Source: a virus
Lineage: Duplodnaviria > Heunggongvirae > Uroviricota > Caudoviricetes
IMG/VR virus record: IMGVR_UViG_3300044638_003984
Reading direction: 5' to 3' (one strand)
Length of the DNA stretch: 51,166 nt
A program made the position numbers and the translations under genes. Below are positions 2,000 to 49,317 of the stretch, one piece after another. Numbering within the stretch: position 1 is the stretch's first letter; every line of letters begins with the position of its first letter. The notes under the pieces were generated by a model. It worked only from the letters and a program-made list of their open reading frames with translations. It ran no database searches and was not told the origin of the DNA.

Positions 2000-4900
2000 T
2001 TGCCCAGTAATTTGTTCCGACTGGAATTACCAATCTATATGAAGAACCAGAACCAGAAACCTTTCCTGTAAATACTGCTTGTCCAGAACTTCCTGGTGCA
2101 GATGTTCCAACACCAAGACTACTAAATTGTATGTTCTTTGTTGATGTGTAACTAGTCCAATTATTTTCTGTTAAGATAGTATATGCAACGGCTCCCATTG
2201 ACCATCCACCAACTTTAAGATCAGTTCCGTCTAATCCAAAGTATACTGCACCTACCCCTGGTCTGTGGAAGGCCATAAATGCTGCATTTGTTCCAGAACC
2301 ACCATAAACTTCAATACCACCTAATGAACCAGTGGATGTTGCTAAGCCTGTTCCTGGGGCAGTTGATTGAGAAGCACTAGCTAGTATTCTACCAGAGAAC
2401 GAACCAGTTGTAGCATTCACGCTTCCACCTGAAAGATTAGTTGCTGTTGTAGCTGTAGTTGCGTTTCCTGATAATGTAGCTGTAATTGTTCCAGCTGAGA
2501 AGTTACCAGAAGAGTCTCTTAACACAATTTGACTTGCGCTATTAGTTGAAGAAGCTGTAATTGTAGCAGAGTTGGCTTGTCCAGATATAGTTGAAGCTTG
2601 GCCATTTATGTTCATTGTTTGGCCACTTATAAATGAAGCAACTTTTGCAGCAGTTGCAGATCGGAAATAATTATCTCCAAATTTAGCCATAATATATGTT
2701 ATCGTACCAACACTAATATCATCAGTAGAATTAACATAATTTGCATTAATATATCTAGCATTAAAATCGCCATTTCCATCCCTCAAAACAATCTGGTTTG
2801 CAATATTAGAAGCAGTAGCAGTAATTGTAGCTGAATTAGCTTGCCCTGAAATATTAGATGCTGTAGTTGCTGTAGAAGCGTTTCCAGAAAGGTTTGCTGC
2901 AATTGTTCCTGCGGAGAAGTTACCAGAAGCATCTCTTGTAACTATTGCGTTTGCTGTATTGGCTGAGGTTGCTGTAGTTGCAGAGTTTGGAATAGAAGTT
3001 AAAGAAGCACCTGAACCGGAGAATAATCCAGCTGTAATTGTTCCTGCAGAGAAGTTACCAGAAGCATCTCTGAGAACAATTTGAGATCCAATATTAGAAG
3101 CAGTAGCAGTAATTGTAGCCGAATTAGCTTGTCCGGAAATGGAAGTAGCAGTTGTAGCGGTAGATGCATTTCCAGATAGATTTGCTGTAATTGTTCCTGC
3201 AGAGAAGTTACCAGAAGCATCTCTAGCAACAACATTAGAGGTACCAGAAGTTGATGCATTTACTGCAATAGTTACTGCAGAAGATCCATTGTATGAACCA
3301 CCAGTTAAGAAAGAACCTATTGTCAATGTTGCTAAATTAGATCCTAGTGCTATTCCAGATATTGTAGAATTGACTAATGCAGAATTTGGGATAGTAGTTA
3401 ACCCAGCACCCGAACCAGAGAATGTATTTGCTGCAATTGTGCCGATAACTTGTAGAGCTTGAGATGGTGTTGATGTTCCTATACCAATTCTATTGTTTGT
3501 TGCATCTACAAACAATGTAGGATCGGTTCCTGAATTTGTATCAACAGTTAGGGCAGATATGGTTGCTCTTGTTCCATCAAAAGTAAAGTTTGATGAACCT
3601 GTTAAAGTTCCTGAAGAATTATATTGAACTTGTGTATTAGAACCTCCAACTGAGGCAACGTTAATACTACCACCAAGAGAAACTGAAGTACCATTTATTG
3701 TAATAGAAGAATTCGCTAATTTATTATTAGCAATCGATCCAGATAACATATCATTTGTTACAACACCCGTACCAATAGTTGTTGTTAGAGATACATTACC
3801 AGAACCATTAAATGAGACAGCAGTTGCAGTTACATTTCCAGTTAATGAGAACGTTCTGGAATTCTGTAGAGTAGTTGCTGAAGAAGCTGTTCCATTTAGT
3901 GTTGCTGTAATTGTTCCTGCAGAGAAGTTACCAGAAGCATCTCTAGCAACTATTGCACTAGAAGTATTGGTTGAAACTGCACCAACAGCTGAGTTTGGAA
4001 TAGAAGTTAAAGAAGCACCTGAACCGGAGAATAATCCAGCTGTAATTGTTCCTGCAGAGAAGTTACCAGAAGCATCTCTCACAACAATACTGTCAGATGC
4101 ATATAATACTGTTCCGCCAGAACCAAAGGCAACAGTTGATGAATCCGTTCCAGTAAATGTTAGGGAATTTGAAATAGTTAGAGATTTATTGGCAGATAAT
4201 GTTAATGATGAACTAGATCCCAAAGCTAAAGTTGCTGCAGATGCTGGGGGAGTTATATTAATATTATTGTATGTCTTATTTGTTAATGCTTCAGAACCAG
4301 CTAAAGTTGCAAGAGTACCTGTTGTTGGAAGAGTTACATTAGATGTATCAGATAGAGTAAGTGTTAGGGCATATGCCCCAGATGTTATTAAATTACCATC
4401 AAGAGTTATTGTCTTTCCTGCATTATTAACACCAGTTCCACCATATTGACCAGTAATTACTGTTGCATTCCATGTTCCAGTTGCGATAGTACCAACAGAT
4501 GTTAATGAAGAATTGATTACACTTGAACCTAGAGTTGTAGAAGATAATGTGGAAGTACCATTTATTCTATACACGCTTCCAGTAGTGATATTGATGTCAC
4601 CAGAAATATCTACTTTATAAGATGGAGAAGATATTCCTATACCGACATTGCCAGAACTTGAGAATGTAGCAATAGCAGTGCCAGCAGAATTATTGTTGTT
4701 CCAAGTACCACAAAACACATCCAAGCAGTAGTTTGCGCTGGTGTCATGGCGAGGCTGTAATCTAGCCATGATAGAGTTTGTATATCCACCATTGGTGTTT
4801 GCATTCCAGGTCAGAGCCGCCCCACTTGTGGCCACTGTGTACACCATGTTGGTGCCAGCACTAAGAGTGACATCGCCGTTGAGGCCACCGACAGCACCAC

Positions 4901-6569
4901 CGACAGCACCTACATGTAGTGTGGTTAATGGACTCGTCGTTCCAATACCGACCTTACCATCAATACCAATTCTTAAGACAGATGTCGATGAACCGCCAGA
5001 TGTTTCGAAAGAAGCAATTGCTCCAGTATCATTTAAACCATCATTTCTTGATACGACTCTTAATGTTTTGCCAGAATTAACTCCAGAAGATCCTCTATCA
5101 TCTAGGATATAAACCCCATCTGCAGATCCACCAGAAGTTCTTGAGAGATTAATAAATGTATTAACTGTATCTGTATTGTTGGATACAGCGAACAATCCAT
5201 TAGTTGTAGTAGAAGTTCCTATGGCTATAGCACCATCTGAAGCAATTCGAATTCTTTCTGTACCACCAGTAGAAGCTGCAATTGTATCTTCAGCTGGGAA
5301 CCAGAAACCAGTATTAAGATCACCAGTATTAGTTATGGAAGGAGCAGAAACAGATCCATCTCCAAATGCCCCAACACCAGCTACAGTTAATAATGCATCT
5401 GGATTAATTGTTCCGATACCAATTTCACCAGTTGATATTATTCTTATTCTTTCTACACCACCAGTAGAAGCTGCAATAGTATTTGATAGCGGGAACCAGA
5501 AACCAGTATCTAAATCTCCAGTATTTGTAATCGATGGAAATCCAGTAGCACCATCACCAAAGGCACCAACTCCGGATACAGTTAATAATGCATCTGGGGA
5601 TGTTGTACCTAAACCTAGTCTATTATTAGTATCATCCCAATATAGATTTGTTGTATCCCATGTATACGAATCAGTTGGTGAACCAAATAATACAGCACCA
5701 GTAGGAACATCTGGTGTAATTGCAGATATTTTAATTTTCTTTAATGAAGAAGAATCATATACAAGAAGATAATCAGTTGCTCTTGTTGTATCTGTTAATG
5801 ACGTAATTTCTGATTTGTTTTCGATCGATCCGATAGTTAATGACGCAATCACATCAGAATACATTTGTGGTGTAAGTACTGCACCAGTTCCACCACTAGT
5901 TGGTGTTATTGTGATTGTTGGTAGAGAAGAATAACCATAACCACCATCAACTACCGTCTTACCATTTATATTACCAGATCCAACTGTAACTGTTGCTCTA
6001 GCATTTCTACCAACGAATAACCAATTATTTGCCAAACCATTTGAATGTAGAGGAACTATTGAATTATTCGGAATTGCTGTTGTTGCTTTATAGAATTTGT
6101 ATGATACACCTGTTGCACCAGGAATAGCGAATGCGCTCGAAACAATAGTTCCTGCATTGAATCCAGTAGATCCAACAACAGAATCAATAGTTGTTCCAGT
6201 TGCACCAGGAAAACCAGTAGATCCAACATATGGATTTGAAAAAGTAATAGTTGGGGCAGCAGAATAACTTATACCAGCGTCAGTAATTTTTATATCTCTT
6301 ACAATTTGATTATTAGATGGAATTGTTACTGTTAGATCGCCTAAATTTTGATAGGGTGAATCTGTATTATAATAAGTTCCAAAAGCTTTATTTGTATTAG
6401 TTAGAGATGGAGAATATTGACCCCAATAGACAATAAATTCTCCAGTATTAAATGGTTCTACAGTAGTAAGTGTACCTTTTCCAACTAACTCAAATTGTTC
6501 AAATCCTTCATTTACTTTAGAAGCCCATTGATTAAGAGTATCACTATTTTTTAATCTTGGTAAAGACAT
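1995..6569 (-). CDS. Long tail fibre protein (1524 aa), modular
   Basis: N-terminus MSLPRLKNSDTLNQW is typical of T4-like fibre attachment segments. It has repeated 'G.VGIGT.SP' beta modules and seven RD(A/S/G)(S/N)G(N/D)F(S/N)A repeats, is Gly/Ser/Thr-rich, and lies after the baseplate genes. Confidence 0.85.
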   Translation of the reverse strand: MSLPRLKNSDTLNQWASKVNEGFEQFELVGKGTLTTVEPFNTGEFIVYWGQYSPSLTNTNKAFGTYYNTDSPYQNLGDLTVTIPSNNQIVRDIKITDAGISYSAAPTITFSNPYVGSTGFPGATGTTIDSVVGSTGFNAGTIVSSAFAIPGATGVSYKFYKATTAIPNNSIVPLHSNGLANNWLFVGRNARATVTVGSGNINGKTVVDGGYGYSSLPTITITPTSGGTGAVLTPQMYSDVIASLTIGSIENKSEITSLTDTTRATDYLLVYDSSSLKKIKISAITPDVPTGAVLFGSPTDSYTWDTTNLYWDDTNNRLGLGTTSPDALLTVSGVGAFGDGATGFPSITNTGDLDTGFWFPLSNTIAASTGGVERIRIISTGEIGIGTINPDALLTVAGVGAFGDGSVSAPSITNTGDLNTGFWFPAEDTIAASTGGTERIRIASDGAIAIGTSTTTNGLFAVSNNTDTVNTFINLSRTSGGSADGVYILDDRGSSGVNSGKTLRVVSRNDGLNDTGAIASFETSGGSSTSVLRIGIDGKVGIGTTSPLTTLHVGAVGGAVGGLNGDVTLSAGTNMVYTVATSGAALTWNANTNGGYTNSIMARLQPRHDTSANYCLDVFCGTWNNNNSAGTAIATFSSSGNVGIGISSPSYKVDISGDINITTGSVYRINGTSTLSSTTLGSSVINSSLTSVGTIATGTWNATVITGQYGGTGVNNAGKTITLDGNLITSGAYALTLTLSDTSNVTLPTTGTLATLAGSEALTNKTYNNINITPPASAATLALGSSSSLTLSANKSLTISNSLTFTGTDSSTVAFGSGGTVLYASDSIVVRDASGNFSAGTITAGLFSGSGASLTSIPNSAVGAVSTNTSSAIVARDASGNFSAGTITATLNGTASSATTLQNSRTFSLTGNVTATAVSFNGSGNVSLTTTIGTGVVTNDMLSGSIANNKLANSSITINGTSVSLGGSINVASVGGSNTQVQYNSSGTLTGSSNFTFDGTRATISALTVDTNSGTDPTLFVDATNNRIGIGTSTPSQALQVIGTIAANTFSGSGAGLTTIPNSALVNSTISGIALGSNLATLTIGSFLTGGSYNGSSAVTIAVNASTSGTSNVVARDASGNFSAGTITANLSGNASTATTATSISGQANSATITATASNIGSQIVLRDASGNFSAGTITAGLFSGSGASLTSIPNSATTATSANTANAIVTRDASGNFSAGTIAANLSGNASTATTASNISGQANSATITATASNIANQIVLRDGNGDFNARYINANYVNSTDDISVGTITYIMAKFGDNYFRSATAAKVASFISGQTMNINGQASTISGQANSATITASSTNSASQIVLRDSSGNFSAGTITATLSGNATTATTATNLSGGSVNATTGSFSGRILASASQSTAPGTGLATSTGSLGGIEVYGGSGTNAAFMAFHRPGVGAVYFGLDGTDLKVGGWSMGAVAYTILTENNWTSYTSTKNIQFSSLGVGTSAPGSSGQAVFTGKVSGSGSSYRLVIPVGTNYWAT
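2983..4079. repeat. 89-bp exact direct repeat (2983-3071 and 3991-4079) within a family of shorter RDASGNFSAGTI-coding repeats
   Basis: gagtttggaatagaag...ccagaagcatctct is identical in both copies, 1008 bp apart and in frame. Confidence 0.9.
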
Positions 6570-42900: not shown

Positions 42901-43095
42901 TCAGTAGTTTAGCGATCGAGCTTCGACAAGAAGGCTCGTTGCTCCATCTGTAGTTCGTAGTTCGCATACGCAATTTTGTGGGCGCAACGACAGGTCGGCA
43001 GTTTGACGTTCATACAAGCGAATTAAAGCACGGCGGACACAACGTTCGTCATTCGCAAGTTTCTGGCGAATAGCTTCTTCTGTGTACGTTTCCAT
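42901..43095 (-). CDS. Hypothetical protein, possibly a truncated member of a phage family (V.RAL.RLYERQTAD)
   Basis: Leaderless ATG after its own promoter; the C-terminal half looks non-conserved. Confidence 0.5.
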   Translation of the reverse strand: METYTEEAIRQKLANDERCVRRALIRLYERQTADLSLRPQNCVCELRTTDGATSLLVEARSLNY

Positions 43096-43101
43096 ACTTT
43101 C

Positions 43102-43130
43102 ATTGTACCGTGTTCAGATTGAAGTGTCAA
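43102..43130 (-). promoter_or_regulatory. Early sigma70 promoter TTGACA-N17-TACAAT
   Basis: Followed by the same GAAAGT-ATG as the 42841 promoter. Confidence 0.85.
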
Positions 43131-43209
43131 GGAATTTTGGAAATTTATATTCCGTTTATTTTCAATGACTTGACTACCACTCCTTGCGCCCTACACATTC
43201 CCCAATCTA

Positions 43210-43467
43210 TTAACGATTAGATTTCCTAATAACTTTAAGATCTTTGACATTGAATAATTTCGTATTCATAATTCCTTGATTGACAAGTTTCAATCGAACG
43301 TAGTGAAATTGTAGGATTTTGCAATCATAATCAAAACCTCGAACATAACAGATTTTCTCTACAATACCAACAGAGTCTTCTTTCTTTGTGCCATCATTCA
43401 GAGTGATCTTAGTTCGAACAACATCTCCAATTTTGATATTCATGTTAGCTCTAAGATTCGTTTCCAT
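43210..43467 (-). CDS. Hypothetical SH3/KOW-like small protein
   Basis: IKIGDVVR motif; the start may be the ATG at 43443. Confidence 0.55.
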   Translation of the reverse strand: METNLRANMNIKIGDVVRTKITLNDGTKKEDSVGIVEKICYVRGFDYDCKILQFHYVRLKLVNQGIMNTKLFNVKDLKVIRKSNR

Positions 43468-43676
43468 ATGGTTCGTCTTGTATGTTGATCTGTATTTGTT
43501 GTTTCGAAAAAAATATTATTGAGTTGAGTCATATGTTCGAAACATAAATCAACAGTTGCGTGAATAATTCTACCATCGATCTGATCGACATGTGGAATTG
43601 TGATTCGTTTTGCTTCTCTTTTTCTAGCTTCTATTTTTGGACAAACATCACAAGCATAAATCTTAATTTCAGCCAT
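43440..43676 (-). CDS. Hypothetical protein with a CxxC and a distal C-x-x-H
   Basis: CDVC...DLCFEH; GAGG RBS upstream. Confidence 0.6.
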   Translation of the reverse strand: MAEIKIYACDVCPKIEARKREAKRITIPHVDQIDGRIIHATVDLCFEHMTQLNNIFFETTNTDQHTRRTIWKRILELT

Positions 43677-43690
43677 ACGACCTCAAATTT

Positions 43691-43767
43691 TGGTAGCTGC
43701 GGTGGGATTCGAACCCACACTTTACGGATTTTAAGTCCGTTGCCTCTGCCGATTGGACTACGCAGCC
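43691..43767 (-). tRNA. trnL: tRNA-Leu(UAA) with a short variable loop
   Basis: GGCTGCGTAGTCCAATCGGCAGAGGCAACGGACTTAAAATCCGTAAAGTGTGGGTTCGAATCCCACCGCAGCTACCA. Confidence 0.9.
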
Positions 43768-43773
43768 ATTTAT

Positions 43774-43809
43774 GGAATAACGACTAATCTGTAAACTAGT
43801 CGTTATTCC
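43774..43809. repeat. 13-bp perfect inverted repeat between tRNA genes
   Basis: GGAATAACGACTA-N10-TAGTCGTTATTCC. Confidence 0.8.
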
Positions 43810-43814
43810 CGATG

Positions 43815-43889
43815 TGGTCCCACTAGGACTTGAACCTAGAACCCTCCCGTTATGAGCGGGACGCTACTAACCAATTGAGCTATGGGACC
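43815..43889 (-). tRNA. tRNA with CAU anticodon (probably Ile2/lysidine type, otherwise Met); no encoded CCA
   Basis: GGTCCCATAGCTCAATTGGTTAGTAGCGTCCCGCTCATAACGGGAGGGTTCTAGGTTCAAGTCCTAGTGGGACCA; C4-G69 and C5-G68 pairs match TilS determinants. Confidence 0.85.
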
Positions 43890-43898
43890 GAATTATTT

Positions 43899-43985
43899 TG
43901 GTGGGGATGGAGGGAATCGAACCCTCACGCCCTTGCGGGCACTGGAACCTAAATCCAGGGCGTCTGCCAATTTCGCCACATCCCC
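43899..43985 (-). tRNA. trnL: tRNA-Leu(UAG)
   Basis: Class II cloverleaf with a CTGGA-TTTAGGT-TCCAG anticodon arm, a GCAA-capped variable arm and CCA. Confidence 0.95.
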
Positions 43986-44009
43986 AATATATTTACTTAT
44001 ACAATATTT

Positions 44010-44134
44010 TGGTATCGGGAGATGGAATTGAACCATCTCAAGTCTATTCATCTAATTAGTTATCCTAGGTTCTGACTTCAACCCTTCGACGCCACGGAAG
44101 TTAGCCGCCGCTCTATCCAATGAGCTATCCCGAA
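44010..44134 (-). ncRNA. 125-nt tRNA-like RNA with about 49 extra nt between the D arm and the T arm
   Basis: Acceptor stem TTCGGGA/TCCCGAT, D arm GCTC-ATTGGATA-GAGC, T arm GATGG-TTCAATT-CCATC, and an ACCA end; the middle segment is 71 nt. Confidence 0.75.
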
Positions 44135-44150
44135 ATATACAATAGCTTTC

Positions 44151-44552
44151 TCAAATTGTTTTGAATTCAAGAACTCGTCCGTTATCAGTAATTATAACAT
44201 ACAATTCTTTGACGTTTCTAGTAGTGATGGATTTAATGTAAATATTTGCTTCAAAATTACCAAGTTGGATAATATCTTCTGTGTTGTTATTCTCGTTACA
44301 CCAAACCTGATGAGCTAAAATTTTCTTATTTTTCTTTTGTTCCTCGAGCCAATTGAAACACAACAGAAAAAATTCATGTCTAGTCTCTGTGTTATTAACT
44401 ACACGTCCATGTCTCTTAAACCATTCGCGAATCACATCTTGTAATTCATATACTATCCATTTTTGTTTCTTTGGTTTGGCGATTACATCCAATGAGTTGA
44501 GTAGTAGATATCGTCTTGTCATAAATTCTATATTCTCGAGAATCTCTACCAA
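44151..44552 (-). CDS. Hypothetical protein
   Basis: 133-aa ORF; the start is uncertain (TTG at 44552 or ATG at 44522). Confidence 0.55.
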   Translation of the reverse strand: MVEILENIEFMTRRYLLLNSLDVIAKPKKQKWIVYELQDVIREWFKRHGRVVNNTETRHEFFLLCFNWLEEQKKNKKILAHQVWCNENNNTEDIIQLGNFEANIYIKSITTRNVKELYVIITDNGRVLEFKTI

Positions 44553-44684
44553 TCAATATTGGTATTGTATTTGTCAGCCGGAAACAATCCCTTTTTGTGC
44601 AAGTCATTTGCAACAGTTTGGATGTCTGGATAAAAAAATAAGGTCTACCATAAGTATTCTCAACCAGTTCGAATGTTCATAATA

Positions 44685-44972
44685 TTAACGTTCTGTAATA
44701 GTTACAGTTCCTTCAAACAAACCATATGTAGATTTTTCGTGAAAAATATGAGTCTTAGGCTTTTCTCCTGCTTCACGCTTTCTAGTCAAAATCCAAAGGT
44801 TTGCACTACTAGTTGCACCGCCGACACTTTTCCAAGTAATATTTTCTAATACTTCGCCAGGAGGCAGATCGATCTTCATATCACCACCAAATTGATTAGT
44901 GTGTGAATTTTCTGTACAACCTGTCAACAAACATGACGCCAAAATAATACTACAAAGAATCGTACTTTTCAT
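44685..44972 (-). CDS. Conserved phage lipoprotein
   Basis: Lipobox-like LLTGC; FGG.M.I.LPPGE.L.NITWK...LW.LTR....E.P....F.EKS.YGLFEGTV.I.E. Confidence 0.75.
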   Translation of the reverse strand: MKSTILCSIILASCLLTGCTENSHTNQFGGDMKIDLPPGEVLENITWKSVGGATSSANLWILTRKREAGEKPKTHIFHEKSTYGLFEGTVTITER

Positions 44973-44975
44973 AAA

Positions 44976-45098
44976 TTACACTTCTTTCGAAATCAAGACA
45001 AAGAACTCGTCGTCCTGGTCAACAATCTCCCAACCAGCATCGAATAGTTTCTTGTCGAAATCATTTGCATGAATCCACTTCTGAATCGTTCTTACCAT
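44976..45098 (-). CDS. Small hypothetical protein (40 aa; absent from the ORF track)
   Basis: MVRTIQKWIHANDFDKKLFDAGWEIVDQDDEFFVLISKEV; it fills the gap exactly, and its start overlaps the upstream stop. Confidence 0.6.
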   Translation of the reverse strand: MVRTIQKWIHANDFDKKLFDAGWEIVDQDDEFFVLISKEV

Positions 45099-45283
45099 TT
45101 GTTTGAAACTCCTTCAAGATATTCTACTGCAGAGAAGAAATCTGCAAAGTATTGTTTTGAGTTATTGATAACTGAGAGGGAAATCCATTGCTGCTCATCA
45201 AAAAATTGACCACGCCAGATACAGCCGATCGCCCTACCAGTCGAGTCGAAAACAATTTTCCCATCTTTGATCTTTACTTCCAT
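45092..45283 (-). CDS. Hypothetical protein
   Basis: 63 aa, with an AGGTGA RBS and its own promoter. Confidence 0.65.
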   Translation of the reverse strand: MEVKIKDGKIVFDSTGRAIGCIWRGQFFDEQQWISLSVINNSKQYFADFFSAVEYLEGVSNKW

Positions 45284-45300
45284 TCATCACCTACTATTCA

Positions 45301-45329
45301 AGTATACTAAATTTTTTGGTGGGAAGCAA
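45301..45329 (-). promoter_or_regulatory. Early sigma70 promoter TTGCTT-N17-TATACT, with the -35 in the loop of a GGTGGG/CCCACC hairpin
   Basis: 17-nt spacing; upstream AAAAATATTTT tract. Confidence 0.7.
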
Positions 45330-45351
45330 GCCCACCCAAAATATTTTTCGG

Positions 45352-45453
45352 TTACTTCCTGCGGAGGCAGGTCGTCTCGGCGATGTCCAGGAAGTCTTCC
45401 CGATCAGAAGCGAAAGTCAGAATCTTCGCAAGCTTCAGAACCATACGAAGGCT
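45352..45453 (-). pseudogene. Orphan duplicate of the AAA ATPase C-terminus
   Basis: Translates to SLRMVLKLAKILTFASDREDFLDIAETTCLRRK*, 18/32 identical to the ATPase end SLRSVIKAAQILAFSENKEDFHDIMMTTGFRR*. Confidence 0.85.
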
Positions 45454-45468
45454 AGAAAATTAAATTTA

Positions 45469-45515
45469 TATAAATAAAATGAGGGAATAAAGTGTTATCA
45501 GCACTGTAATCCCTC
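45469..45515 (+). promoter_or_regulatory. Late promoter TATAAATA (45469-76) plus a leader hairpin (45481-45515) for the homing endonuclease
   Basis: GAGGGA...AGTG-TTATCAG-CACT...TCCCTC stem-loop directly after a perfect late consensus. Confidence 0.75.
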
Positions 45516-45543
45516 TAAACACAAACTAAGGACTAGTTAGCTT

Positions 45544-46380
45544 ATGTCTAATACTATTTATTGCACTTACCTCACAATTTATTCTGGGAACAAACTTCCT
45601 ACATTTTATATTGGATCTACTTCTGTCGAAAAAATCGAACAAGGTTATCGTGGTTCAGTTTCTTCAAAACGATATCAATCTATATGGGAAAAAGAATTAA
45701 AATTTAATTCTAACTTATTCAAAACAAGAATAATAACAAGACACAATACGAGAGAAGAAGCTCTAGAAAAAGAAAAATATTTTCAGAAATCTCTTAATGT
45801 TGTGAAATCGCCTATGTACATTAATTGCGCATATGCGCAATTAAATGGTTATGCTGGAATGGATGTTAGTGGAGAACTAAACCCAATGTTTGGCAAAACA
45901 CATTCTGAAGAAACAAAAAAACTTATAACTGAAAAGTCTATAGGAAAAATACTGTCATCGGAGACAAAAAAGAAAATTTCTATTTCCAATAAAGGAAGAA
46001 AACTTTCAGAAAAATGTTGTTTAGAAAAATCAATTAGAATGCGTGGAGAAAATAATCATATGTTTGGAAAACCTCTGTCTGTAGAAAGAAAAGTCGCAAT
46101 TTCTGAACGTAATAGAAAGAGAAAAGGCGAAAAAAGAAATCCGCTTAGTACAGAACAAAAAGTTCAAATTGCAAGAAATAAAAGAAGTAAGCTACAAAAA
46201 TTTTGTTTTATTCACGAGTCAGGTTTAATAGAATTAGATATTACTAGACCAGACTTACGTGACAAATACCCAGATCATAAACTTCATATTGGTAATCTCA
46301 GTTCTGTATGTTCAAAGAAAGTTACTCATTACAAAGGATGGTCCCTTCTTATTACCGACGAAAACCAGTCGTCATCATAA
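45544..46380 (+). mobile_element. Free-standing GIY-YIG (Seg-like) homing endonuclease with NUMOD3 DNA-binding repeats
   Basis: YCTY...FYIGST...YRGS, catalytic Glu in EEALEKE and the YIN motif; NPMFGKTHSEETK repeats; very AT-rich and antisense to its neighbours. Confidence 0.85.
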
Positions 46381-47335
46381 TATCGTGGAAGTCTTCCTTA
46401 TTTTCCGAGAAGGCAAGAATCTGCGCCGCTTTGATGACAGAACGAAGCGACAAATCCCGCATTTTCTGATAATTCGTCTTCACGTACGACACGAGGAAAG
46501 TCGTATCCGATTCGTCAAGACCAAGGGTGTAAGCCATATCCGAATTCTTCAGAACGTCTTCGATTCGCAGGATGTACTCACGAGTCGAACCAAAGTTCAG
46601 ATCAATATAGAACGAACGGGAAATGAGAGCCTGGAAGTGTGGCGCCATCATCTTGCCCTGAGCGATCGCAGTTTCAAAATTCTTGTTCGTGATGAAGATC
46701 ATCGAACCACGATATTCAAATTCATTCGGAATCGCTTCGCCCAACTCGTCAACGAACATCTTTTCTGAAGCCCAGGAGATCACCCGCCGCTTCGACGAAT
46801 CAAGAGCTGCCTTCAGGATATTCATCGCAACTTCATCATCGAATGCCGAATCAGCGTCGTCGATCAGGATAACAGCATTGTCGTGACGATTTTCCCACAG
46901 AGCCTTGAAGAGACCAGTCGCCTTCACGAAGCCAGTGATCTTCTTGTACTTGATCTCGCCGTCCATCTCAGCACGCTCCAACATACCTTCGATCGTGTAG
47001 GTCTTACCGATACCAGCCGGACCAGAAACGATCATCGAACGAACCTTACCAGAAATGACACCCGAAGCCATCCGATCAAGCGTACGGAACCGCCGACGCT
47101 GGCAGTCAAGAATTTCCTCGTCGCTTACTTCAGAAGTCGCTTGATGAGAAGTGGTGTCGGAACCCGAAACGAATTCAGAAATGTCGTAGACTCCACGACC
47201 AATCTTATTCTTCGTCAAGAAGCCAGGATTCACACCATACTTGTTTGCGACAGACATAAGCTGGTCACGATTGACATTCGTTCCAAAAGAAGCAACCAGT
47301 TCGTTGATCAGAGAGATCTTTTTCGTGTCATTCAT
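46352..47335 (-). CDS. AAA-family ATPase conserved in T4-like phages
   Basis: Walker A SGPAGIGKT, Walker B ILIDDAD, LKAALDS, FEYRGSMIFITN and ALISR motifs. Confidence 0.85.
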   Translation of the reverse strand: MNDTKKISLINELVASFGTNVNRDQLMSVANKYGVNPGFLTKNKIGRGVYDISEFVSGSDTTSHQATSEVSDEEILDCQRRRFRTLDRMASGVISGKVRSMIVSGPAGIGKTYTIEGMLERAEMDGEIKYKKITGFVKATGLFKALWENRHDNAVILIDDADSAFDDEVAMNILKAALDSSKRRVISWASEKMFVDELGEAIPNEFEYRGSMIFITNKNFETAIAQGKMMAPHFQALISRSFYIDLNFGSTREYILRIEDVLKNSDMAYTLGLDESDTTFLVSYVKTNYQKMRDLSLRSVIKAAQILAFSENKEDFHDIMMTTGFRR

Positions 47336-47343
47336 ACAAAACC

Positions 47344-47372
47344 ATTATAGCGTATCCAATAGACTATCGCAA
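47344..47372 (-). promoter_or_regulatory. Early promoter TTGCGA-N17-TATAAT, near-leaderless, for the ATPase
   Basis: The ATG lies 8 nt after the -10 box and there is no Shine-Dalgarno sequence. Confidence 0.8.
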
Positions 47373-47406
47373 GCAAATTGCGAAAATATTTCAAAATATT
47401 TCTTCC

Positions 47407-47687
47407 CTTTAGAATCAATAACTTGCAAGGATCGCTTCGCAAGTCATTCAAAACAAAGAGATTCCTGGAATCACTATTAAATACATACGAGTTCTTTCTG
47501 GATTCCTGTATCGTCTTGGAGATCGCAATCTGATCTGGGTGAGGTAACGGGTGCCGGAAAGTCGTTTCTGAATTTCCTGTGAGGAATGATTTTGGATGCA
47601 GGCTGCATCCATAATCGTGGAGCCTATTGGCTGTCAGGAATATTCGCTTTAGAATCAACGACTTGCATCAAACCATTGAAAATAAAG
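47407..47687. repeat. Four copies of a roughly 20-bp motif CTTT(N6)AA(N2)ACTTG arranged as two inverted pairs
   Basis: 47407-27 and 47647-67 are 19/21 identical and 240 bp apart. Inverted partners lie at 47439-58 and 47669-87. Confidence 0.7.
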
Positions 47688-47709
47688 AGAATATTCTTTC
47701 GAAAAAACT

Positions 47710-47737
47710 TTGCTCTGAGATTGAATCGAGGTATAAT
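47710..47737 (+). promoter_or_regulatory. Early promoter TTGCTC-N16-TATAAT, leaderless, for the hexapeptide-repeat gene
   Basis: The ATG at 47744 lies 6 nt after the -10 box. Confidence 0.7.
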
Positions 47738-47743
47738 GGTTCT

Positions 47744-48373
47744 ATGGAATTTGAACAACTGAAATCTATCTTTCCTGACGCAACGCTCGAGACCTGGCAC
47801 TGCCATCCGAACGGAGGAGGCTGGGTCCAGAATTCAGCGATAGTAGAGGATACATCGTTCGTTGGACCGAACGCTTTGGTCTTTGGGAACGCTCGGGTCT
47901 CTGGGACCGCTTCGGTCTTTGGGGACGCTTCGGTCTTTGGGGACGCTTGGGTCTCTGGGACCGCTCGGGTCTCTGGGACCGCTCGGGTCTCTGGGACCGC
48001 TTCGGTCTTTGGGGACGCTTGGGTTTCTGGGACCGCTCGGGTCTCTGGGACCGCTCGGGTCTCTGGGACCGCTCGAGTCTCTGGGAACGCTTCGGTCTCT
48101 GGGGAAGCTTTGGTCTTTGGGAACGCTTCGGTCTCTGGGTTCGCTTCGGTCTCTGAGGAAGCTTTGGTCTATGGGAACGCTTTGGTCTTTGGGAACGCTT
48201 CGGTCTCTGAGGAAGCTTCGGTCTCTGGGTTCGCTTCGGTCTCTGGGGACGCTTCGGTCTCTGGGGTCGCTTCGGTCTCTGGGAACGCTTCGGTCTCTGG
48301 GTTCGCTTCGGTCTCTGGGGACGCTTGGGTCTCTGGGTTCGCTTCGGTCTCTGGGGGCGAAGTCTTGAGATAA
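47744..48373 (+). CDS. Hexapeptide-repeat (left-handed beta-helix) protein
   Basis: WHCHPNGGGWV N-terminal motif, then 26 G-x-A-x-V-(S/F/Y) type repeats. The start is moved to the leaderless ATG. Confidence 0.85.
   Translation: MEFEQLKSIFPDATLETWHCHPNGGGWVQNSAIVEDTSFVGPNALVFGNARVSGTASVFGDASVFGDAWVSGTARVSGTARVSGTASVFGDAWVSGTARVSGTARVSGTARVSGNASVSGEALVFGNASVSGFASVSEEALVYGNALVFGNASVSEEASVSGFASVSGDASVSGVASVSGNASVSGFASVSGDAWVSGFASVSGGEVLR
47885..48352 (+). repeat. 26 x 18-bp tandem coding repeat, GC-rich
   Basis: Consensus GGG NNC GCT TCG GTC TCT. Confidence 0.95.
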
Positions 48374-48386
48374 ATTATATAAAGAC

Positions 48387-48415
48387 TTGACTAACTTGAC
48401 TTTCTACGCTATAAT
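48387..48415 (+). promoter_or_regulatory. Early promoter TTGACT-N17-TATAAT
   Basis: Near-consensus, followed by GAGT-ATG-TAG. Confidence 0.75.
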
Positions 48416-48695: not shown

Positions 48696-48820
48696 TGTCT
48701 ATCTTAAATAGACTTTCAATATGGTTCTGTCGTGAATTTCATCATGAAATTACTCGACCAGTATTCGGAAGATATCACTGCATTAAGTGTGGAAGGGAAT
48801 ATAAGTCTCCTTGGAAATAA
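48695..48820 (+). CDS. Small Cys/His zinc-binding-like protein (41 aa; absent from the ORF track)
   Basis: MSILNRLSIWFCREFHHEITRPVFGRYHCIKCGREYKSPWK; TAATG start/stop overlap with the upstream gene. Confidence 0.75.
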   Translation: MSILNRLSIWFCREFHHEITRPVFGRYHCIKCGREYKSPWK

Positions 48821-48825
48821 TACGT

Positions 48826-49317
48826 ATGAATACCATTTGCAATACAGACGACACGATTGACTCGCGAGATCTATGCAGTCAGCTCCAGCTATTGAAGGAT
48901 GACTTAGAAAGCGAGTATGAAGACTTTATTCTGGAGTTGAGTAATTTATCTGATCAGTACATGAGCCTCATGGATAAGTGGGACATGGTTGAGATACTAA
49001 AGGAGGGGTACTCCTTAGACACATACAAGGATGAGTGCAAGTCAAAACTGATTGACGAGTGGAGATCGATCAAGGATTTTATTGACGAGATCGAGTCCGA
49101 GCGTGGATACGAAGAGACCTATCGCCATGGCGTCACGCTGGTTCACGACAACTACTTCGATAAGTATATCGAAAAAGACCATAACTCCCTGCGGCCACCG
49201 CATAAAGAGAGCTGGCCGTATAATCACATTGACTGGGTGAAAGCCGCTAAACAGCGTCGACAAGACTTCGCTGAGTTGACCTGGGACGGAAATACTTATT
49301 TAGTAGAGAGGGTTTAA
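48826..49317 (+). CDS. Conserved acidic phage protein, distantly ArdA-like
   Basis: NTDDTIDSRD, GVTLVHDNYF..Y, WPY.HIDW..AA and DGNTY motifs; the ATG at 48826 is preferred over the TTG. Confidence 0.6.
   Translation: MNTICNTDDTIDSRDLCSQLQLLKDDLESEYEDFILELSNLSDQYMSLMDKWDMVEILKEGYSLDTYKDECKSKLIDEWRSIKDFIDEIESERGYEETYRHGVTLVHDNYFDKYIEKDHNSLRPPHKESWPYNHIDWVKAAKQRRQDFAELTWDGNTYLVERV

Follow-up and report, generated by a model that had tools for sequence, protein, structure and literature searches.

An I-TevI-like endonuclease gene with a foreign gene end at the 3' terminus of a phage AAA ATPase gene: a probable two-part homing element

Introduction

Some homing endonuclease genes travel together with a piece of the gene that they invade. 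The WHO elements of Torulaspora and Lachancea yeasts consist of an endonuclease gene that is mobile together with a 3' half of FBA1 conferring resistance; their integration swaps the gene's 3' half and pushes the old half downstream, and this 3' half is fast-evolving and phylogenetically discordant (Coughlan et al. 2020, PMC7282813; Osborne et al. 2026, bioRxiv 10.64898/2026.08.13.744650). In fungal mitochondria, mORF “gene hybrids” have been described for atp6, atp9, cox2 and nad3 of Glomus (Beaudet et al. 2013, PMC3630166), and the same article lists atp6 of Allomyces macrogynus as a further one, citing Paquin et al. 1994. For introns of phage T4, one-sided homing with illegitimate repair has been reported for situations in which homology is available on one side only (Parker et al. 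1999, as cited in Edgell et al. 2010, PMC2988022). Here we describe a 51,166-nucleotide (nt) stretch of DNA from a virus of the class Caudoviricetes (IMG/VR record IMGVR_UViG_3300044638_003984; hereafter the window), in which a GIY-YIG homing endonuclease gene is flanked by two versions of the end of an AAA ATPase gene, one of them in use and the other an orphan. We consider it probable that the window is the occupied allele of a two-part homing element, composed of an I-TevI-like GIY-YIG gene and a travelling 3' end of its host gene.

The locus resembles both fungal precedents in several respects. As with the WHO elements, the 3' part of the host gene is replaced rather than interrupted, an old 3' fragment lies downstream (in WHO with its start at the site of the cut), the gene's 3' part has diverged far more strongly than its 5' part and is discordant with it, and occupied and unoccupied alleles coexist. 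As with the mORF elements, a foreign C-terminal piece arrives together with an endonuclease open reading frame (ORF), the native C-terminus stays downstream and matches a close relative, and the in-use end is diverged; the Glomus atp9 case likewise involves a GIY-YIG enzyme. In structure, the window matches the design in which an endonuclease gene is coupled to a replacement gene end on every point that can be tested. This design is known from fungal mitochondria and yeast, and the window is a phage member of it.

Results

The ATPase gene occupies positions 46352..47335 on the minus strand and encodes a protein of 327 amino acids (aa) that matches phrog_1250 (E 1.4e-84) as well as Pfam AAA and AAA_16 (PF00004 at 26.5 bits, above the cutoff). 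It is 38% identical to T4 NrdC.10 (tblastn, E 1e-58) and displays a Walker A motif GPAGIGKT, a Walker B motif ILIDDAD and a conserved C-terminal helix RELSLR..K; its homologues are found in thousands of T4-like phages. The gene is composed of two parts of different ancestry. Codons 1-288 (46471..47335, minus strand) form the native body, which shares 98.1% nt identity with L001, the closest endonuclease-free relative, and is of L001 type at informative sites. The remaining 119 nt (46352..46470, minus strand; YQKMRDLSLRSVIK...GFRR and stop) are, according to alignment and informative sites, a replacement tract of foreign type, called P0003 type here after the relative that carries it.

Converging on this tract from the opposite strand is a free-standing GIY-YIG/NUMOD3 endonuclease gene (45544..46380, plus strand), a 278-aa ORF recognized by profile and fold matches. 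The two genes overlap by 29 nt (46352-46380), and in this overlap the endonuclease gene runs antisense to the nine terminal codons of the ATPase gene. It is preceded by a 90-nt leader (45454..45543, plus strand) containing the motif TATAAATA, a hairpin and AAGGA ahead of the ATG. Behind the leader lies the orphan (45352..45453, minus strand), that is, the displaced native last 33 ATPase codons and stop (SLRMVLK...CLRRK), which translates as SLRMVLKLAKILTFASDREDFLDIAETTCLRRK followed by the stop, is collinear with L001 1309-1410 and begins 898 bp from the in-use stop. Two in-frame stops stand directly upstream of it (I-stop-I-stop-FSSLR), so the orphan cannot belong to a longer ORF. The insert thus delimited is 1017 bp long (45454-46470) and holds the foreign gene end, the endonuclease gene and the leader, the last of these being its only non-coding part. 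Its left junction (46470..46471) falls within a shared GAATT, where the crossover is placed, at the edge of the strongly diverged tract. At its right junction (45453..45454) the leader is joined to the S codon of SLR, with 1-2 nt of homology at most.

In three public contigs (L004, L006 and L009) the orphan has been called as a 30-aa gene (45352-45444, minus strand). No ribosome-binding site can be seen in front of this ORF, and a gene fragment is the best reading of it.

Comparison of the two gene ends leaves little of their common origin in doubt: a hidden Markov model (HMM) of the family C-terminus matches both copies (E 3e-17 and, for the orphan, 5e-16), which makes this homology rather than chance. 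They share 18 of 32 residues and differ at 41 of 96 nt (57% nt identity). The in-use end retains the invariant or near-invariant residues of the family, R293, S296, L297, R298 and K302, and the gene keeps the form of a functional one, its protein measuring 327 aa as against 328 aa, with all conserved C-terminal residues kept. An earlier reading of this DNA, made from the sequence alone and referred to below as the original prediction, had described this arrangement correctly in its outline: two versions of the last ATPase codons around a GIY-YIG gene, an in-use copy overlapping the endonuclease 3' end on the opposite strand, an orphan about 900 bp away and 18 of 32 residues in common. It had also held that the copies differ “at most synonymous positions” and that the in-use end was “recoded”. 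The first is not so, since the codons of only 9 of the 18 common residues differ, that is, half; the second overstates the case, the tract being a diverged foreign allele (57% nt identity) and not a synonymous rewrite. Its G+C contrast was right in direction and for the ATPase gene (about 50% predicted, 47.6% found), and wrong in magnitude for the orphan (about 60%, found 52.9%) and the endonuclease gene (about 22%, found 30.8%); the window mean is 34.6%.

The state of the locus before insertion is preserved in endonuclease-free relatives. Unoccupied alleles occur in L001 and in two further contigs, and in the endonuclease-free contigs the ATPase gene is followed by 68 nt and then by 63-aa and 40-aa genes, as in the window. 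L001 matches the window at 98.1% over 47758-46471 and at 96.8% over 45453-44000, and where 20 nt lie between these matching blocks in L001, the window has 1017 nt. As L001 runs through the site without a break and its gene terminates in the orphan sequence, the window is an L001-type genome with an insert at 45454-46470. The 20 nt in question (L001 1289-1308, codons STRMREL, family consensus) are absent from the window; L001 is therefore not a deletion product of the window, and it is the window that represents the derived state. The orphan has a single mismatch to L001 1309-1410 in 102 nt. Since this divergence is no greater than that of the flanks, the orphan is the recipient's own gene end, and, measured against the 2-3% that separate L001 from the window, the event is a recent one.

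The ATPases encoded on L001 (P0004) and on L002 and L003 (P0003) have very close bodies and different ends. P0004 is 99% identical to the window protein in its body and ends in the orphan sequence (39/40 residues), whereas P0003 is 95% identical in its body and ends in the in-use sequence (35/39 residues); the in-use tract agrees with the P0004 end at 20/39 aa. Informative sites place the switch precisely: the window is of L001 type through gene column 860 and of L002/L003 type from column 866 to the stop, such that the body, the orphan and the downstream flank are all of L001 type and only the in-use tract is of P0003 type. L001 and L002 are 83-100% identical along the gene body and 55-60% identical in the last ~110 nt, and this sharp drop marks the in-use tract as a discrete, strongly diverged allele. 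P0003-type homology reaches as far as the last codon but one (CGG), beyond which the sequence is that of the antisense endonuclease ORF. The next twenty ATPase relatives all have orphan-like ends (23-33/40), the in-use type being found in P0003 only. The features YxK, FSENxEDF and TTxF of the in-use type are shared with a group whose bodies are ~60% identical, which makes the in-use end foreign to the clade of the window.

These comparisons bear on three further points of the original prediction. That the ancestral end was left stranded is borne out by the alignment it had proposed, with L001 contiguous and ending in the orphan sequence. That the insertion lies at the LSLR motif is correct on one side, where the S of SLR is the very first residue of the orphan, and incorrect on the other, where the replaced tract starts 7 codons upstream (46470). 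It had further expected endonuclease-free relatives not to end in the in-use sequence. Literally, L002 and L003 do so, and the closest relative, L001, does not; as only the in-use tract is of P0003 type and all else is of L001 type, L002 and L003 (a more distant lineage, at 88% nt identity as against 98% for L001) mark the donor allele type and do not contradict the prediction, whose insertion reading as a whole is supported.

One short stretch of the gene body, near its 5' end, departs from the L001 pattern. Columns 61-120 (window 47216-47275) agree fully with the L002 type and to 90% with L001, and hold six consecutive informative sites. This patch suggests that the L001 and L002 lineages exchanged a small mosaic piece on a separate occasion.

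The occupied layout recurs widely. In the contig collection, 60 indexed blocks contain exactly this endonuclease protein, and at least 17 contigs, all those that were read, share one and the same layout; they come from JGI, ENA, NCBI and Logan samples, and some of them are 50-115 kb long. Among the occupied contigs no site varies within 45200-46600, and sites farther out do. The recurrence of the same layout across many samples and assemblers means that it is not an assembly artefact.

The endonuclease itself matches the homing endonuclease family phrog_314 (E 2.6e-24) and carries three stretches of NUMOD3 (PF07460, E 2.6e-16). An AF2 model built with 30 homologues is confident over residues 1-100 (pLDDT 89-98) and has there the b-b-a-a-b-a order of elements, b being a strand and a a helix, of the GIY-YIG fold. 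Searched against the PDB with Foldseek, it matches best the I-TevI catalytic domain structures 1LN0 and 1MK0 (probability 0.99-1.0, TM 0.60 by target), and further matches include the GIY-YIG nucleases PD-T4-3, Slx1 and UvrC and also the I-TevI DNA-binding domain. The latter is likewise found by a sequence-profile match (1I3J, E 0.0023); a PDB search with the sequence alone gave no match. Residues Y9, Y13, G15, Y22-I23-G24, E77 and N94 are invariant across the 30 homologues. The last 60 residues have no match, are modelled with low confidence and are unique to this protein. On this evidence we accept the protein as a predicted I-TevI/Seg-like GIY-YIG enzyme. It is the closest structural match of its catalytic domain and the NUMOD3-type linker or DNA-binding segment that link it to I-TevI of the T4 td intron (1LN0, 1MK0, 1I3J); it differs in that sequence identity is ~20%, in that the window gene is not intron-borne and in its unmatched C-terminal 60 residues.

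The leader may contain signals for expression. TATAAATA (45469-45476), 67 nt upstream of the endonuclease gene, resembles a T4 late promoter; such motifs are not enriched in the window, which has 10 where 7.9 are expected, so that the promoter call is weak and serves as a hint only. The hairpin (45481-45515) has a folding energy of -18.4 kcal/mol (z -2.4). The leader (45454-45543) is AT-rich and has no similarity to L001, L002 or L003, and an exact 26-mer from it is absent from the metagenome and viral contig collections. We found no other paralogous endonuclease genes in the window, and among GenBank phages the only relative at the DNA level was a 93-nt match to Proteus phage PM2, within the endonuclease gene.

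Recurrence of the arrangement was surveyed at 80 IMG/VR loci with ATPase homologues. Plain tblastn detected no duplicate gene ends in them besides the window-type loci, and an HMM scan of the same loci then revealed a short orphan in L056 (IMGVR_UViG_3300011334_000558). The ATPase homologue of L056 (3387-4265; 292 aa, 42% identical) is met by a convergent Seg-like GIY-YIG gene (4246-4917, minus strand; 223 aa, phrog_314 2e-10, PF19835 E 0.003) that overlaps its end by 20 nt. Directly behind this gene, on the ATPase strand (plus, 4936-4965), stands an orphan of 9 codons, KFARVTCCK and stop, which is 86-90% identical over 28-29 nt to the native ends of the endonuclease-free loci L053 and L076; the in-use end, KFAQVTCARS and stop, differs from it at the third position of nearly every shared codon. 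To judge by this arrangement, L056 is a second, independent case, with a different endonuclease in a distant relative. The closest relative of L056, L043 (IMGVR_UViG_3300005758_000213; 86%), has at 3040-3120 a replacement-type end, VTCARF and stop, and, antisense after the ATPase stop, only ~12 codons like the C-terminus of the L056 endonuclease (AERKLRNERT as against AELRLRNEHK, each with stop). L043 probably shows a stage after loss of the endonuclease gene. In L079 (IMGVR_UViG_3300047476_000521; 4212-4820), an HNH_3 gene (E 9e-13) converges on the ATPase homologue with a 57-nt overlap, and no orphan was detected. There are thus three different endonuclease genes at this gene end, with displaced ends at two of them.

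Discussion

How could such an allele arise? In the model that we favor, a double-strand break would be made in an L001-type ATPase gene close to the RELSLR codons, presumably by the window enzyme itself. The enzyme would cut the orphan-type allele near the junctions and spare the in-use tract, which has 57% nt identity to the native end. The break would then be repaired from a donor in which the endonuclease gene sat, in convergent orientation, right at the end of a P0003-type ATPase gene, and a donor segment of 1017 bp, comprising the last 39 codons of P0003 type, the opposite-strand endonuclease gene and its leader, would be copied. On the left side, a homologous crossover would occur in the shared GAATT, where donor and recipient first become alike again, because strand invasion from a 57%-identical tract would first succeed there. 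On the right side, the segment would be joined straight to the recipient's own SLR codons. This could perceivably happen in two ways. First, one-sided homing may have been completed by illegitimate joining. Second, the donor may already have borne the orphan and used it as a right-hand homology arm. Either way, the ATPase gene would emerge whole, normal in length and with an end of foreign origin, the native end being left dead 898 bp downstream.

Several observations weigh against this model. The donor, that is, the endonuclease gene in another context, was not found: the exact protein always occurs in the same layout, its nearest relative is 46% identical, and 80 of its relatives on metagenome contigs (identity of 54% or less) have no ATPase homologue beside any of them. 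The in-use end type is native in the endonuclease-free L002 and L003, which means that the tract can exist and spread without the endonuclease gene. The tract is also no closer to L002 (~90%) than is the rest of the gene (88%), and so is not a recent copy from the sampled L002 lineage. The right junction shows almost no microhomology, and the position of the target site is read from the junctions alone. As for the enzyme, the Pfam GIY-YIG profile (PF01541) reaches only E 0.31, far under threshold, and the conserved Arg of the GIY-YIG family was not identified, R36 not being conserved and R70 being nearly invariant.

Some of these observations would be accommodated if the endonuclease gene were a mere passenger, carried along, and perhaps inactive or aimed elsewhere, when co-infecting L001-type and P0003-type phages recombined illegitimately. 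Cleavage by the enzyme is, after all, deduced from the layout, the P0003-type end does occur without an endonuclease gene, the right junction is non-homologous, and the L002-type patch at columns 61-120 speaks for a mosaic exchange between the L001 and L002 lineages elsewhere in the same gene. We nevertheless regard this explanation as unlikely. The same architecture arose independently in L056 with a different GIY-YIG gene, and an HNH gene stands at that position in L079; three endonuclease genes at one gene end, two of them with displaced ends, are hard to reconcile with a passenger. Moreover, the C-terminal motif that the family conserves best lies between the breakpoints, and the endonuclease ORF is intact, with its motif residues invariant.

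The presence of an endonuclease gene between two direct copies could also suggest a local tandem duplication of the ATPase 3' end, followed by insertion of the endonuclease gene between the copies and their divergence in place. This is very improbable, given that the copies differ at 43% of nt whereas the flanks differ from L001 by only 2-3%, and that one copy matches L001 (1/102 nt differs) and the other the P0003 type (~90%). Each copy thus has its own close relative elsewhere, as would two pre-existing alleles and not the products of divergence in place. We give hardly any credence to an intron or intein, that is, to the orphan being the real C-terminus, joined by splicing, even though introns often carry phage endonuclease genes of this family and the orphan and the ATPase gene have the same orientation. 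A permissive Rfam scan of 43000-48000 returned no group I or group II match at E <= 1 and only three tRNAs; the endonuclease gene is antisense to the ATPase gene, only 90 nt of the insert are non-coding, and two stops precede the orphan. Since the in-use end is a natural allele, complete in length and with a stop of its own, neither splicing nor an intein is needed, just as the original prediction had maintained. An assembly chimera of two strain variants, both of whose allele types are present in metagenomes, can be set aside practically altogether in view of the identical layout in at least 17 contigs, some of them 50-115 kb in length, from independent samples and assemblers.

The two-part homing element, which remains the preferred explanation, differs from the described systems in several respects. 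WHO enzymes are HO-related LAGLIDADG proteins with a zinc finger that act on a eukaryotic nuclear gene, whereas the enzyme discussed here combines GIY-YIG and NUMOD3 modules and sits at a phage gene. The part replaced by WHO amounts to ~400 bp, half the gene, as compared with 119 nt here; the window endonuclease is antisense to its host gene and overlaps its end, and no cluster of successive elements is seen. Allele-specific cleavage has been demonstrated for WHO6, whereas the window allele is predicted to be resistant. Because the window enzyme is of the GIY-YIG type, the element would work like a WHO element without belonging to the WHO protein family. The mORF elements, for their part, lie on the same strand as their host gene and often in frame with it, whereas the window gene lies on the opposite strand, has a weak promoter candidate and resides in a virus.

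Closer in host are the free-standing endonucleases of T4 (SegA-G, Mob), among which GIY-YIG genes likewise lie between phage genes or at their edge (PMC2988022; SegB, PMC2330249). Intronless homing of this kind shares with the present case a double-strand break and co-conversion of flanks, as well as junctions at little or no homology if one flank lacks homology. It differs in that the T4 cases are clean co-conversions or split genes (nrdA/mobE, gene 60/mobA, gene 43) (PMC2988022). In that review we found no displaced duplicate gene end, and the string “duplicat” is absent from its text; the open-access phage literature that could be searched likewise names co-conversion or split genes as the effects of free-standing endonuclease genes, and we came across no gene end in it that had been duplicated and displaced. 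T4 mobD was considered as a separate parallel and rejected: the T4 homologue of the window ATPase gene is nrdC.10, and nrdC.11 separates nrdC.10 from mobD.

It is possible, and we propose this tentatively, that phages hold a general third class of homing element besides the intron-borne and the plain intergenic ones, in which an endonuclease gene and a resistance-conferring end of the neighboring gene move as a unit and the displaced end serves as right homology arm. Repeated invasion, twice by GIY-YIG and once by HNH genes, would then drive the unusual diversity of NrdC.10-like C-termini in an arms race like that of WHO and FBA1, and P0003 and L043 could be footprints that remained after endonuclease loss.

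L001 and the window, with flanks only 2-3% apart, form a clean natural before-and-after pair that shows how a free-standing phage endonuclease gene can enter a coding region without an intron, an intein or gene splitting. The pair would narrow the presumed cut site of the enzyme to ~30 nt. The case also connects three literatures that do not cite one another, those on T4 intronless homing, fungal mORFs and yeast WHO elements. For annotation, it accounts for short “hypothetical” ORFs called behind endonuclease genes, and it cautions that gene ends adjoining such endonuclease genes may have another history than the bodies of the same genes.

Other features of the window

The context downstream of the orphan (45092..45338, minus strand) is unchanged and as in the endonuclease-free relatives L001-L003, with a GC-rich hairpin (45318-45338) and the 63-aa gene (45092-45283). 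The hairpin (GGGTGGGCTTGCTTCCCACC, minus strand) stands directly after the native ATPase stop, and L001 and L002 both retain it. Its position in the occupied allele is ~1 kb past the in-use stop, and the ATPase message therefore probably runs antisense through the endonuclease gene.

Three tRNA genes (43694-43985, minus strand; Rfam 56-63 bits) are located 1.4 kb downstream of the orphan. On the other side of the ATPase gene, a 248-aa ORF (47627-48373, plus strand) consists of Gly/Ser/Ala/Val-rich repeats (such as VSGTARVSGTASVFGDAWVSG), with a G+C content of ~60% in a genome of 35%, and a related repeat array is also carried by L002. Among ten otherwise near-identical contigs, most of the variable sites fall at 48000-48400 and 48800-49200.

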